From: an uncultured Pseudomonadota bacterium
GTDB lineage: Bacteria; Myxococcota_A; Polyangia; Fen-1088
NCBI GenBank assembly: GCA_963725905.1
Contig: CAVSAG010000002.1
Span: 804,962 to 868,961, forward strand
DNA: 64,000 nt
Reading direction: 5' to 3'
Shown: positions 9,251 to 18,153 of the stretch, in pieces
Numbering within the stretch: the stretch's first letter is position 1
Layout of the letters: every line of letters begins with the position of its first letter
The notes under the pieces: generated by a model
The model's database searches: none
Told to the model about the DNA's origin: nothing
Seen by the model: only the letters and a program-made list of their open reading frames with translations
Translations under genes and position numbers: made by a program

Positions 9251-9946
9251 ATGATCGAACGACGAGGGAGTGCCGAGCGCAGGGTGGCGAAGCTGACGGA
9301 AGCCAACGCCCGCCTGCGGCGCCGGCTGGCCGAGCAGGCTTCGTTCTGGCGCATCGCGCACCAGGATCCGCTGACCGAGCTGTGGAACCGCCGTTACGCG
9401 GACGAGCGCCTCGGCGAGGAGATGATCCGCGCGCAGGACGAGGAGGGCTACCGTTTCTCGCTGCTGGTCGCCGACGTGAACGATCTGAAGCGGATCAACG
9501 ACCAGCGCGGCCACGCCGCCGGCGACCAGGCGCTCAAGTGGGTGGCGCGCTTCCTGGCGGGCGCCCTGCGCGCCGACGACGTCTGCTGCCGCATCGGCGG
9601 CGACGAGTTCTTGCTGCTCCTCCCCGGCACCGGCGCCGACGAGTGCCGCGAGTTCGTCAAGCGCCTGCGCACCGAGTGGCGCCACGAGTCCCGCGCCCAC
9701 GACCACGCCGTGGCGGTCAGCCTGGGGAGCGCGTCGTACCCGACCCACGGGGGGACGGTGGAGGGGCTTTGCGCGGTGGCGGACGCGGGGATGTACGAGG
9801 AGAAGCGGCGGCGGATTGCGCCCGAAGCTCGAGCGGGCGCTCAGACAGGTTCAAAAGCGCAGGGATCGACGGGGGCCGCCGAACCGAACGCCGGGGGCCC
9901 CGTCAGACGTCTCGTTCCACCGCGTAGCTCAGAAGTGCGGCGATGA
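9251..9946 (+). CDS. GGDEF-domain diguanylate cyclase
   Basis: DPLTELWNRRY...RFSLLVADVNDLKRINDQRGHAAGDQAL...CRIGGDEFLLLLPG (GGDEF motif RIGGDEF); ATG at 9251. Confidence 0.8.
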   Translation: MIERRGSAERRVAKLTEANARLRRRLAEQASFWRIAHQDPLTELWNRRYADERLGEEMIRAQDEEGYRFSLLVADVNDLKRINDQRGHAAGDQALKWVARFLAGALRADDVCCRIGGDEFLLLLPGTGADECREFVKRLRTEWRHESRAHDHAVAVSLGSASYPTHGGTVEGLCAVADAGMYEEKRRRIAPEARAGAQTGSKAQGSTGAAEPNAGGPVRRLVPPRSSEVRR

Positions 9947-10933
9947 AGTCTCGGTCGGCGCTATCCGGAGTCCCTGCGTAGGCCTGCTCGAAGGCGCCAG
10001 CTGCGGCCGCCGCCAACTCCCGGGCGGCGCTTCTCGCATACTCGATGCTTCCGTGGCGCTCGAGCCGCGCGTAAATCCAACTTACGTCGTCTTGAGAGCG
10101 TTCCCGGCGGGTTCGCCGCAGGATTTGTACGAGCGTCTCGTTCTCGCCAGGATGAGGTTCCGCAAGAGGTGTACCAGGATGAGCGTGCGCTTCCCCTCCC
10201 AGAGGTCGCCGCCGATCTCCTTGCCGTACTTTTCGGGGGTTCCGATGAGGTTCAAGACATCGTCTTGAATTTGGAATGCCGTCCCGAGCAGGACGCCGAA
10301 GCGATCGAAGCGTTCGAGGCGGGAGCTGTCGAGTCCGGCCACGAGCCCGCCGATTCGACAAGGGTGCATGAAGCTGTACCAACAGGTCTTCTTCAGCACC
10401 ATCTGGAAGTAGTCTTCTTCAGATAGGTTGCAACGGTTGTCGTGAATCCATCCGAGCTCCAACGCCTGTCCCTCGATGGATTCGACGAGCAGGTGATCGA
10501 ACTCGTAGGCGATTGCGAGAGTTGTCCTCGGTCCGACCACGGTAAGGTTGTCGCGGAGCATGTGGAGGGCGAGTGCCTGCATGGCGTCGCCGACGTTCAC
10601 CGTCAACGGGATCCCGTGCTGAACGTGCATGGTCGGCGCAGTTCGTCTGAAGTCACTGTCATCCTCGATGTCGTCGTGGACCAAGAATGCGTTGTGGAGC
10701 ATCTCCAGGGCGGCCGCGGACGGGACGGCCGTCTGCGGGTCGGCGCCGAACGCGGCGGCGGTGGCGATGCAGAGCGCTGGTCGGAATCCCTTGCCGGCGC
10801 GGCTGAGATGGTCGCCAATCAGATCGTAAAGATAGGGTCCCGGGGCTCTGCCCTCGATCGCGGCGAGCAACCTCGGCGTCACCATGGCCCGGTAGCGCGC
10901 CAGCTGCTCCTTGAATGGCGTGGTGGCATCCAT
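9903..10933 (-). CDS. polyprenyl synthetase (GGPP/FPP synthase, CrtE/IspA-like); frameshifted near 10150-10165 in this sequence
   Basis: First DDxxD motif LVHDDIEDDSDFRR, second FQIQDDVLNL, then EGKRTLILVHLL. Conserved C-terminus (GSIEYARSAARELAAAA...LLSYAVERDV) continues in the -1 frame (ORF 9903..10382). Confidence 0.75.
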
Positions 10934-10954
10934 CGCTGGGCCCGCTGCGGCTTC

Positions 10955-14983: not shown

Positions 14984-14999
14984 GTTCCCCCTGGGTCCA

Positions 15000-17900
15000 C
15001 TAACGGTTGATCGGTGGCGATTGTTCCCGCTGTTCCAGTGAATGTACGTCGAGCGATGAAATGCGACCGGAGTCGGCCACGCCGGTCTCGAGCGCGGTCA
15101 GCGTCGCGACCGCGCGCTGTTCGAGCAGGTAGGCGCCCTGACTGCGCGCGATGTCGATGGCCTTGCGCAAGTGGGCCTTGGCCTCCTCGGTCTCCCCGCT
15201 CGCCTGCAGCAGCAGGGCGCTTCGGAGACGGTGGAGCTCGGCGTCGCAGTTGTTCTCGCCGTTGGCTTCGGAGTAGCGGAAGGCGTCTTCGAGGACGCCC
15301 AACGCTTCCAAGGTCAGCCCGGACCTCGCCAGCAGGTCGGCCAGGCCCCAGCGCGCGTGAACGAAGTTCATGTGGGCGCCGCAGCTCTCGTATTCCCGGA
15401 TGCCGATCTCCATTTCGGCGCGGCCCGAGGCGAGCTCGCCCAAGCGAGCGCGGGCCCAACCGCGGTAACACCGGGCGGCGCCGACATAGAGCTGGAACCC
15501 TTCGTCCTGCGCCAGCGCCAGCAGACGGCCCGAGGTTTCGAGCAGGCTGGCGGCGTCTTGGCGCCAGTAGGAGAGCTCGGCCGAGAGACTCAGGTGAACC
15601 GCCGTGCTCGGGGGATGCCCCAACTGTGCGACGAGATCCCGACCCTGCGCGAGGGCGTGAGCGGATTCCTGCGGTCGTCCCTCCAGCGCCAGGCCGATCG
15701 CCTGGATTCCCCACATGACCGTGGTCGACGAGAGCTGAGTGATGCCGACGATGGCCTGCTCCTGCTCCAGCGAGAAGAGACGGCAGCCCTCGTCCGCGTG
15801 GCGAAGCGCCGACGACAGATCGCCCAGATAGAAAAGGGTGAAGACCATGGCGTGCCGGGCCATGACGCCCAGGAGCGGGTTGCCGGACGCGTTGGCCAGC
15901 GCCAACACGCGCTCGGCCACCGAGAGCGCGCGGGTGATTTGCCCGCGGACGAGGTACGTCGACCACAGACCCCAGAGCGCAGGGAGAACGCTCTCGTGAG
16001 CACCGACCTCCTCGGCCAATTGCAGCGCCCGCCGACAGCTGTCCTCGACCTCGTGGGCCGCCCACCCGTTGATGGCCATGAACGCCGGTGCGATCGCGAG
16101 GTTCAATGCGAGCTCCGCGGCTTTGCGCTCGGGCGACGCGGGGGTCAGTTCCGTCAGCCGGAGGGCGCGTTTGAGGTGAGCGATCGCCTCCTGATTGGCG
16201 GAGCGCCCGAGCGCCAGCGCCCCGGCGCGTTGCCATTGCGACGCCGCACCGCCGACATCGCCGCCTTCTTCGAGGTGCGAGGCGAGAAGCTCCGGTCGAG
16301 CAGCCGCCACGTCGGGGAAGCGCTCCCGCAACGTGTCGGCGGTTCGCCGGTGATATTCGCGGCGTTTCGATCGGGCGAGGGACCCATATGCCGCATCCCT
16401 CACCAACGTGTGCTTGAAGGCGTAGTTGACCGGAGAAGACCCCGAGGAGAGCAGGAGGCCCGACGAGAGGAGCCGATCGAGATCGGGCCTCAGCCCCTCG
16501 TCCGAAACCGTCGACACGGCGCTCAGGAGGTCGCCGGAGAATTCGCGCCCAATGACCGATGCGACCTGAGCGATCCCCTTGGCCGTGCCCAGACGGTCGA
16601 GGCGGGCCATCAACCAATCCTGGAGCGTGACCGGCACGGATGCCGTCGCCCCGGCCGGTCGGACAGCCTCCGTGGCGGATCCCGTCTGCTCCCAGTTCGA
16701 GGAGGGCGCGCGTTACCTCCTCGACGAACAGCGGAAGGCCATCGGTCATTTCGTAGATGCGTGAGGCCAGTGCTTCGTCGGCCATCCGACCGGCGACGCC
16801 AGTGACCATTTCAGCCACCTGCTCTCGTCCGAGCGAGGCGACCTTCATCTCCACCACGGTAGCCGGACCGGCCCAGGGTGCTTGGAATTCAGGCCACGCC
16901 GTCAGGCCGACCAGCACGCGAGACAGCGAGCCACGGACAACCATTTCAAGGACTTCGAGTGTCGTCGGATCCGCCCAGTGGAGATCCTCAATCGCCACCA
17001 GCACCGGGCCGTGAGCAGCCAGGCGTCGTAGCCATTCGACGATCGTCTCCAAAAGCAGGCGCCGCTGGCGCTGGGGAGTGATTCCGGCCCACGCCGCGGA
17101 AGCGTCCTGCGGGAGCGAGAGCAGAGCTGCGACAGCCGATATCTGCAAGCGCGACAGCCCGAGATTCGACATCCTCGCGCTCAACTCGGTCGCGACGGTC
17201 GCGACGTTCGCGATGTTCAATTGATCGGTCGTGATGCCGGCCCGCAACCACTGGCGCAGGAGCGAGACGATTGGATGGAGCGGGACGTTCTGATGCAGCG
17301 GAGAGCAATAGCCCTGTAGGACCGGCGCGTCACCCATCGTGACGTGGTTCTTGAAGACCTCGATGAGGCGCGATTTCCCAACGCCGGGCTCTCCGCGGAG
17401 GATGAAGACGGGACTCGCTCCGCTCTGCGCTGCTTGCCAGAAGTCGAGAAGGGTTGCCGTCTCCTCTTCCCGACCGACGAACGGCGTCAACCCAGATTCC
17501 CGGGCTGCCTCCAGCCTGGTCTGGGCGGCGGTCTCCCCGGTCACCAGATGAAGCTGGGTAGGGACCACACCCGAAAGGATCTTGTCGCCGGCGGGGCTGA
17601 AATGGAAGTATCCGGCCGCGAGCCGCCGTGTGCTCTCCGTGATCAACACCTGATTCGGTTGGGCCTCCGTTTGAACGCGCGCCGCGAGGTTCGGGGCCTC
17701 GCCGAACGCCAGCGTTTGTTCTCCTGCGCCGGGGCCAGTCGCTCCAATGACCACCAGCCCGGTGTGAATCCCGACCCGACAGGCGAGCTTGCTATTCCCA
17801 CCAACGAGGTTGGACACGCGACGGACGGTCTCGATGCCCGCGCAAATCGCTCTCCGGGCGTCGTCACCGTGCGCTTCCGGAAAGCCAAAATAGACCAGGA

Positions 17901-18153
17901 TCCCATCACCGAGGTACTGCGCGATATAGCCCCCGAAGGGCCGAATTGCCTCCGCGCAAGCCGTCTGATAGTCGCGGATGACGTCGCTGAATTCCTCGGG
18001 ATCGAGTTGGCGCGATAGCGCCATCGATCCGACGAGGTCGCAAAAGAAAACCGTCAAGTGACGGCGCTCGGACTCGCGTGACAACCGAGCACCACAGGCC
18101 CGGCACACACCACCACCGCCGGGGTTATCGCTGTTGCAGTTAGGGCAGAGCAC
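15000..18153 (-). CDS. zinc-ribbon / class III adenylate-guanylate cyclase / AAA ATPase / TPR signalling protein; frameshifted near 16640-16700 in this sequence
   Basis: N-terminus CPNCNSDNP...CRAC zinc ribbon. Cyclase homology domain HLTVFFCDLVGSMALS. P-loop GEPGVGKSRL. Conserved PVTLQDWLMARLDRLGTAKGIAQVASVIGREF plus TPR region in the other frame (ORF 15000..16637). Confidence 0.75.

Follow-up and report, generated by a model that had tools for sequence, protein, structure and literature searches.

The locus analyzed here raises the question of what an encapsulin-like shell would enclose when its gene lies among those of isoprenoid-pathway enzymes. The locus is contained in a stretch of 64,000 nt (the window, to which coordinates refer unless another locus is named) from an uncultured bacterium of the Polyangia (contig CAVSAG010000002.1 of assembly GCA_963725905.1, positions 804,962 to 868,961), in which genes for the shell, a FAD-dependent oxidoreductase (FAD enzyme), a polyprenyl diphosphate synthase (PPS), and a DUF3237 protein form an operon on the minus strand. 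Known Family-1 encapsulins function in iron storage and oxidative stress, and to our knowledge Family 2B provides the only demonstrated cases of shells that house terpenoid chemistry. The evidence presented below suggests that this operon, conserved in Polyangiales, specifies a protein nanocompartment enclosing one step of an isoprenoid pathway; the FAD enzyme is most likely the dedicated cargo, loaded through a non-canonical C-terminal peptide.

Seven minus-strand open reading frames (ORFs) lie between 9903 and 18642, separated by recomputed intergenic gaps of 9, 19, 40, 14, 15, and 21 nt, and in order of transcription encode an Ig-like protein, a cyclase/AAA_16/TPR regulator, the shell, a small K/A-rich ORF, the DUF3237 protein, the FAD enzyme, and the PPS. 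The initial annotation of the window had recognized a same-strand operon with gaps of 14–40 nt; all of the genes it listed are confirmed on the minus strand, where 19, 40, 14, 15, and 21 nt separate them, but it overlooked the conserved Ig-like gene, which fell outside its range. Conservation of the neighborhood was assessed by a scan of one genome per species, which returned 13 loci (12 distinct; L004 duplicates L002), and by a scan of soil metagenomes with an alignment of the FAD enzyme, which returned 80 loci. All 12 distinct genome loci belong to Polyangiaceae/Polyangiales metagenome-assembled genomes (MAGs), and in every one of them the shell, DUF3237, FAD-enzyme, and synthase genes occur together, in an order that recurs with variations; four further metagenome contigs carry an equal gene set, and in the metagenome scan 36 of the 80 loci have a shell gene next to that of the FAD enzyme. 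An arrangement repeated to this extent is far beyond chance. The association of the shell with polyprenyl synthase, desaturase-like, and DUF3237 genes, first proposed from the window alone together with a synteny check, is thus not accidental, the neighbors being conserved across Polyangiales genomes (12/12 distinct loci).

The shell gene (14069..14980) encodes a protein of 303 aa that matches Pfam Linocin_M18 (PF04454) with an E value of 7.7e-22 and 78.2 bits, against a gathering cutoff of 24.3, and falls below the NCBIfam encap_f1 (NF041155) equivalog cutoff (92.2 bits vs. 100). The ATG at 14980, one codon inside a TTG at 14983, is favored as the start, which gives a 303-aa product identical to a database entry (P0001). 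The best PDB matches of a subfamily profile (28 relatives) are structures of Myxococcus xanthus EncA (8v4n, 4pt2, and 7s20; E value 6e-21), with profile positions 11–127 aligned to EncA 13–135 and positions 184–301 aligned to EncA 162–279; the match spans the N-terminal helix/P-domain and the C-terminal half, and the Pro/Gly-rich, length-variable middle of the shell lies outside it. Among 1.84 billion representatives, the same profile recovers 276 clusters (50% identity) at E ≤ 1e-30. Judged by its sequence, the shell is a genuine Family-1-type encapsulin, albeit a divergent one, from a large clade. The initial description of 14069..14983 as a Family-1 shell therefore holds, the Linocin_M18 model (78 bits) placing it in the family as a profile search had been expected to do; the encap_f1 cutoff is narrowly missed, and the start has been moved by one codon.

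The FAD enzyme (10955..12793) was initially described as a 612-aa FAD-dependent oxidoreductase, and both its length and its FAD domains (Amino_oxidase, DAO, and NAD_binding_8) bear this out; the GxGxxG motif at residues 9–14 is intact. It scores below the NCBIfam cutoffs for HpnE (76.5 vs. 283; the best model), zeta-carotene desaturase (41 vs. 622), and phytoene desaturase (28 vs. 569). In a Foldseek search of the PDB with an AlphaFold 2 (AF2) model (predicted template modeling score, pTM, 0.81), the best match is rice phytoene desaturase (5mog; E value 6e-22, target-normalized TM 0.78), followed by amine oxidases and oleate hydratases. Residues 564–612 (10955..11104) are disordered in the AF2 model (predicted local distance difference test, pLDDT, <50), and FAD enzymes of the genome loci likewise carry a variable linker that precedes a conserved end peptide. 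This peptide takes the form AA[EA]AR[AS]SSDxGLRRLRIV plus 1–4 residues in 56 of 120 database homologs (53–67% identity) and a shorter form, ..[VI]RI[VL]P.., in 41, so that 97 of the 120 have one or the other; neither is found in the remaining 23, three of which are PPS fusions. The forms encountered overall are GLRRLRIV, G-x-VRIVP, and GRVEIIP, and the type A end peptide of the family is AAEARASSDTGLRRLRIV. In the window, the putative cargo-loading peptide is PIHLLPI-stop (10958..10978, minus strand), identified from tail conservation among homologs; it aligns with VRILPF and VRIVPL of the nearest relatives (hydrophobic, basic, hydrophobic, hydrophobic, Pro, hydrophobic).

Among the loci compared, the tail and its motif are confined to those with a shell gene. 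At shell-bearing loci (complete, non-fused enzymes; n = 16), the tail extends 42–124 aa beyond the core (median 108), and 15 of the 16 tails end in G-x-[VIL]-x-[IFL]-[IVLA]-[PES], the remaining one being a GLPSLEAVEP variant; at shell-less loci (at least 2.5 kb sequenced on both sides; n = 11), the tail measures 6–26 aa (median 15), the end motif occurs in 0 of 11, and several tails end in a K/F-rich amphipathic helix (Fisher's exact p = 7.7e-8 for tail and motif vs. shell presence). The FAD enzyme is the sole carrier of the end motif within ±10 kb, no other ORF in any locus having it, and a comparison of termini across loci found neither this motif nor any other conserved terminal peptide on the DUF3237 protein, the PPS, or the small ORFs. 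The N-terminal helix is the peptide-binding element in Family-1 shells, and in this clade it varies with the type of motif, being TVTEEAQKAR with GLRRLRIV and AVTEAFGKAS with GRVEIIP; co-evolution could account for this covariation, but shared ancestry is a confounder. The end peptide fits the general binding mode reported for Family-1 targeting peptides, namely two to three hydrophobic residues at intervals of one or two, together with basic residues (PMC10402063). Canonical Family-1 targeting peptides have a GSL core, such as LTVGSLR and SLGIGSLK, and DLGIRK is also known (PMC7925596); a scan of the window ORFs found such a motif on no credible ORF, and on one dubious ORF only. The targeting-peptide scan proposed in the initial annotation hence yields no canonical motif on the operon proteins, but it does yield a conserved, non-canonical end peptide on the FAD enzyme; as also noted there, the described Family-1 cargo classes are absent, none being encoded in the operon. 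Two other candidate signals were set aside: the N-terminal GLTIWYG of the DUF3237 protein, which is a strand of a folded beta-sandwich in an architecture that also occurs outside encapsulin loci, and RRLVDVP-like strings within the fusion linkers, which are present in only some members and were not relied on.

The PPS gene (9903..10933), identified from the outset as a polyprenyl synthetase, is upheld as such by Pfam polyprenyl_synt (PF00348; 200.6 bits) and by the Asp-rich motifs DDIED and DDVLN, both of which are present along with the LHNAFLVHDDIEDDS region; by customary chain-length rules, these motifs indicate that the enzyme is probably of the short-chain type (C15–C20). After repair of a frameshift (see below), the 343-aa product aligns end-to-end with NCBIfam f2_encap_cargo4 (NF041169) at 199.7 bits, against a cutoff of 450, and scores 187 bits with IdsA. 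The catalytic domain begins about 10 residues from the N-terminus, and there is no disordered N-terminal targeting domain of the Family-2 kind. FAD-enzyme–PPS fusions with a conserved linker are encoded by P0127, P0132, P0134, and 12 metagenome loci; because these natural (Rosetta-stone) fusions join the two enzymes, we infer that they are functionally linked.

The DUF3237 protein (12809..13699), likewise correctly named at first, matches PF11578 at 99 bits (cutoff 24) and has two domains in its AF2 model: a beta-sandwich (residues 1–116) and a barrel (142–290), connected by a linker (120–134). Foldseek matches include 3c5o and 3g7g (target-normalized TM 0.87–0.89) as well as PhnH (6jjs), and the same two-domain architecture is also found in unrelated, shell-less contexts. 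PhnH, a member of the DUF3237 family, is a hydroalkoxylase that cyclizes a prenyl alkene in herqueinone biosynthesis (PMC11969235), and the family also includes the cofactor-less decarboxylases PhcF, PhcG, and PinX. In relatives, additional DUF3237 genes near the operon are fused to truncated-globin domains (L007, 3222..6164, minus strand; L012, 8232..9224, plus strand; and the P0006 contig), one of them also with a GMC-oxidoreductase-like N-terminal part; these fusions hint at oxygen-linked chemistry for DUF3237 proteins in relatives. Taken together, the enzymes of the operon point to a short isoprenoid pathway, which would comprise prenyl diphosphate synthesis, flavin-dependent oxidation or desaturation, and a cofactor-less follow-up reaction.

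The Ig-like protein (18163..18642, minus strand; 159 aa) has no Pfam family and only faint Ig-like matches. Homologs of 160–270 aa are encoded directly upstream of the shell gene in 12/12 distinct genome loci and near the shell gene in many metagenome loci; the protein is a conserved operon member that travels with the shell gene, although in the window the regulator gene parts the two. Most relatives have an N-terminal amphipathic helix (DLVxQASxILAREAxRLP), one or two LRRQAHELIETLL helices, Pro/Gly-rich linkers, and a C-terminal beta-sandwich for which only faint Ig/Fn3-like Pfam matches are obtained. The corresponding N-terminal helix in the window, GIAERVLAVMNGAKAVVGP, is divergent from this form.

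It is by a disordered linker combined with a short terminal peptide that Family-1 cargo attaches to the shell lumen as the shell assembles. We consider it reasonably probable that the operon works in this manner, with the shell assembling around the flavoenzyme, which would be recruited by its C-terminal peptide, and with the PPS and DUF3237 protein as partners, as a soluble counterpart of a membrane pathway. The PPS would make a short-chain prenyl diphosphate (approximately C15–C20) and act with the flavoenzyme, possibly being brought in by association, and the DUF3237 protein probably performs a follow-up step, such as cyclization or isomerization. Homology, folds, synteny, and the correlation between tail and shell are what was observed; that the flavoenzyme is loaded, what chemistry takes place, and how the operon is regulated are inferences. 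The membrane counterpart is suggested by shell-less homologs of the flavoenzyme, which occur in low-GC organisms; immediately downstream of them lies a gene for a Pyr4-like transmembrane terpene cyclase in six loci (L070, L072, L080, L081, L090, and L042) and a DUF6989 membrane protein in four (L067, L075, L079, and L093), often beside MASE6 histidine kinases. Such a gene pair appears to be an uncharacterized membrane terpenoid module. Given that the shell-less relatives terminate in a short amphipathic helix and are partnered with membrane terpene cyclases, the encapsulin system gives the impression of an isoprenoid oxidation, once membrane-associated, that has been moved into a shell. A more far-reaching version, which we hold to be rather unlikely, is that the shell holds the whole flavoenzyme–PPS pair, with the Ig-like protein as an adaptor acting via its amphipathic helix; diphosphates would enter through the pores, and a hydrophobic isoprenoid would be made, and perhaps kept, in the lumen. 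If this were true, lipid-like isoprenoid chemistry would take place in a compartment bounded by protein, with a targeting code unlike any described for Family 1, and the system would have arisen by the movement of a membrane-bound terpenoid pathway into a capsid-like shell.

Several observations weigh against the loading of the flavoenzyme into the shell, or against the proposed pathway. The peptide of the window is a degenerate form of the end motif, the family's end peptide has no GSL core, and the peptide-contact residues of EncA (R28, R34, and D38) are not conserved in the shell, from an alignment read by eye. Every carrier found is uncultured, being represented by MAGs or metagenomes. The operon cluster contains no phytoene or squalene synthase and so gives no support to a carotenoid or hopanoid role of the classical kind, or to the initial suggestion of a role with a carotenoid intermediate. 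The tail correlates equally with the presence of the synthase, which is also missing from shell-less loci, and the end motif is gone from the whole FAD-enzyme–PPS fusion clade and from P0137, whose FAD-enzyme gene overlaps the synthase start, yet all of these still have a shell gene. That the motif is lost precisely in enzymes that are fused to the synthase, or whose gene overlaps the synthase start, would suit an alternative in which the flavoenzyme peptide docks onto the PPS or the Ig-like protein rather than the shell, and the shell either encloses other cargo (the Ig-like or DUF3237 protein) or recruits the complex indirectly; so would the covariation of synthase and shell genes across loci, which leaves the tail correlation unable to separate the two readings, the non-canonical character of the motif, and the conserved terminal helix of the Ig-like protein, which is followed by disordered linkers. 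Countering this alternative, a long flexible linker with a short hydrophobic/basic end peptide beside a Family-1 shell is a known loading format, and the N-terminal helix of the shell changes with the type of motif; moreover, L031 encodes a similar tail-bearing enzyme with no synthase within 5 kb upstream, and in L024 the gene order is tail-bearing enzyme, Ig-like protein, shell. On balance we regard docking outside the shell as unlikely, but as an explanation to be taken seriously. It is highly improbable, by contrast, that the neighbors are operon passengers and that a canonical Family-1 cargo (ferritin-like, DyP, or similar) is encoded elsewhere in the genome, even though some cargos of M. 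xanthus are encoded away from encA (as indicated in parts of a 2025 review) and the view of the source genome spans 64 kb. The gene set is kept in 12 genomes and 36 metagenome loci with gaps of 9–40 nt, the enzyme tail occurs only where a shell gene is present, and the residues with which EncA contacts canonical peptides are not conserved in the shell clade. The one dubious ORF with a canonical-like end within the window (50817..51503, minus strand; GGSLRMG-stop) has no Pfam domain, overlaps several other ORFs, and is probably spurious.

Two further explanations concern the integrity and the origin of the locus. The regulator and PPS genes were both present in the initial gene models, but each is broken by a single-base frameshift that had been overlooked, and their relatives are intact; this could mean that the locus is decaying and the system is non-functional. 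Two frameshifts within 8.7 kb and a degenerate end peptide would be consistent with decay. The regulator, however, is split by an extra G in a G run near 16683, relative to L018 (92–95% DNA identity), where it is a single intact ORF of 1048 aa, and the PPS gene lacks one T of a TTT near 10165 (within 10160–10171), repair of which restores a synthase that is end-to-end with family models. Both indels thus lie in homopolymer runs, the reading frames are otherwise undamaged, and L018, despite its intact regulator, has different single-base indels in its FAD-enzyme gene (at approximately 10967 and 11642), a pattern typical of long-read errors. Both frameshifts look like homopolymer errors of long-read assembly, further ORFs of the window may be split likewise, and decay of the locus is improbable. 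It is scarcely conceivable that the "shell" gene codes for a capsid, be it of a prophage or of a domesticated phage, rather than for an encapsulin. Encapsulins have the HK97 fold in common with capsids and are frequently mistaken for them (PMC8346489), but the protein matches Linocin_M18, encap_f1, and solved encapsulins and has no match in PHROGs; a Pfam scan found no terminase, portal, or protease gene near the shell gene, the neighbors being regulators and metabolic enzymes in a context that is stable across many genomes.

A shell loaded with the flavoenzyme would probably be expressed under the control of the cyclic nucleotide monophosphate (cNMP), kinase, and sigma-54-type regulators that adjoin the operon. 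The adenylate-cyclase/AAA/TPR regulator that was noted initially directly upstream of the shell gene (15000..18153, minus strand) indeed has Guanylate_cyc, AAA_16, and TPR_12 domains, and a homolog lies near the operon, in either orientation, in 11 of the 12 distinct genome loci. Upstream of the Ig-like gene, a Ser/Thr kinase with a cNMP-binding domain (18804..20213, minus strand) is a recurrent neighbor that is also found in L018 and in the contigs of P0127 and P0137; a divergently transcribed FHA–sigma-54 activator–HTH_8 regulator (20268..21614, plus strand) has counterparts in L002, L018, and the P0006 contig. A search for sigma-54 −24/−12 sites turned up none that was convincing around the operon, and across the window the matches numbered fewer than chance alone would give, and sigma-70 and terminator scans of the window were uninformative. 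At its other end, the operon is flanked by a glycoside hydrolase family 6 (GH6) cellulase gene (7429..9084, minus strand) and a GGDEF diguanylate cyclase gene (9233..9946, plus strand), the latter converging on the end of the PPS gene with an overlap of approximately 44 nt.

The small K/A-rich ORF that follows the shell gene (13714..14028, minus strand; 104 aa) had been described initially as a histone-H1-like operon protein, but it occupies a hypervariable slot and is not a conserved component. Its matches to histone-like models are sub-threshold and of low complexity (HC2, 30 bits vs. a cutoff of 40), other loci have unrelated ORFs or none in this position, and a histone-like component was rejected, the ORF being non-homologous to that of L018 (9632..9985) although the flanks are 92–95% identical. 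What the two still share is the ribosome-binding site and the final codons (G-S/G-G-D-stop). Within the shell clade, several members carry additional domains or extensions. P0322, P0312, and P0082 have long charged or repetitive C-terminal extensions; the types seen are a K/E-rich coiled coil, RRRTRAGGGAPTSPTSPT repeats, and an extension with an LLYWFDI motif, which recurs in the small ORFs that follow the L005 and L011 shell genes. The small-ORF slot, including the K/A-rich ORF, may represent an unfused version of these tails, to which its similarity is weak. P0386 (708 aa) has an extra, unannotated N-terminal domain of 416 aa. In P0438 (460 aa), a TIR_2 domain (residues 8–108) is fused to the N-terminus of an encapsulin from the same clade; because the N-termini of Family-1 shells face the interior, this domain would sit in the lumen, and P0438 may be a defense-related shell.

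The locus represents a large, unstudied Family-1-type clade, which comprises 276 clusters at 50% identity together with several hundred stretches of metagenome sequence. The same enzyme has a membrane anchor and a membrane cyclase partner in shell-less organisms and a loading tail in shell-bearing ones, a contrast that makes the question of why isoprenoid oxidation should be encapsulated testable by co-expression of three to five genes. The candidate targeting peptide could serve as an orthogonal loading tag for engineering. Because all carriers found so far are uncultured Polyangiales, the product may be a novel myxobacterial terpenoid. The initial proposal that a Family-1 shell with isoprenoid enzymes constitutes a new cargo context agrees with the literature searched, in which we found no description linking encapsulins with DUF3237, phytoene-desaturase-like enzymes, or Polyangiales. 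The portions of the 2021 encapsulin census covered here list 90 unassigned "Minor" Family-1 operons without defined cargo, one of which could belong to this group, and the corresponding portions of its supplement do not mention DUF3237; the cargo passages of the 2025 review cover ferric reductases and terpene synthases, with no flavoenzyme of this type.

Compared with known systems, the FAD enzyme shares its FAD-binding fold and architecture with phytoene desaturase (5mog) and HpnE, the latter being its best NCBIfam model, but has only ~17% identity, scores below the family cutoffs, has no phytoene or squalene synthase partner, and carries a C-terminal tail in place of a membrane-binding element. 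The DUF3237 protein has the beta-barrel domain of PhnH, PhcF/PhcG, and PinX, but differs in its extra N-terminal beta-sandwich and has ~20% identity to PhnH. Family 3 shells form a separate family in nonribosomal peptide synthetase/polyketide synthase (NRPS/PKS), sulfotransferase, and short-chain dehydrogenase/reductase (SDR) contexts (PMC8346489); the present locus resembles them in having a shell gene within an apparent small biosynthetic gene cluster of a myxobacterium, but its shell is clearly Family-1 in sequence and its context is isoprenoid. With Family 2B, which is linked to 2-methylisoborneol synthase, geosmin synthase, and polyprenyl transferase, it has in common a terpenoid/isoprenoid step tied to a shell, the adjoining cNMP signaling genes, and a PPS whose best NCBIfam model is the Family-2 cargo polyprenyl transferase. 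That PPS is nonetheless not a member of the cargo family (200 bits vs. a cutoff of 450), and the shell is of Family-1 type, with an N-terminal helix and no cNMP-binding insertion. Family 2 cargo has disordered N-terminal targeting domains of 50–100 aa (PMC8346489), whereas the PPS here has no N-terminal domain and the candidate signal is a C-terminal peptide on the flavoenzyme.

The closest likeness is to Family 1 and to the EncA system of M. xanthus, which comprises a T=3/T=1 shell and the cargos EncB, EncC, and EncD with a C-terminal LTVGSLR. Both are found in Myxococcota, the shells are homologous (Linocin_M18, with EncA as the best PDB match) and share the N-terminal helix region, and the candidate cargo here, like the EncA cargos, ends in a disordered linker plus a short hydrophobic/basic peptide at the C-terminus. 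The present system departs from Family 1 in a shell that falls under the encap_f1 cutoff and whose central part is interrupted by long and variable insertions rich in Pro and Gly, in peptides (GLRRLRIV, VRIVP, and RVEIIP) that have no GSL core, in a linker of 40–120 aa, as against the 10–20 aa quoted for known systems, and in the extra conserved Ig-like protein that accompanies the shell. Its candidate cargo is an isoprenoid-type FAD enzyme of ~560 aa, and not a ferritin-like protein, DyP, or hemerythrin; a Family-1 shell with a phytoene-desaturase-like flavoenzyme as cargo would be an undescribed cargo type.

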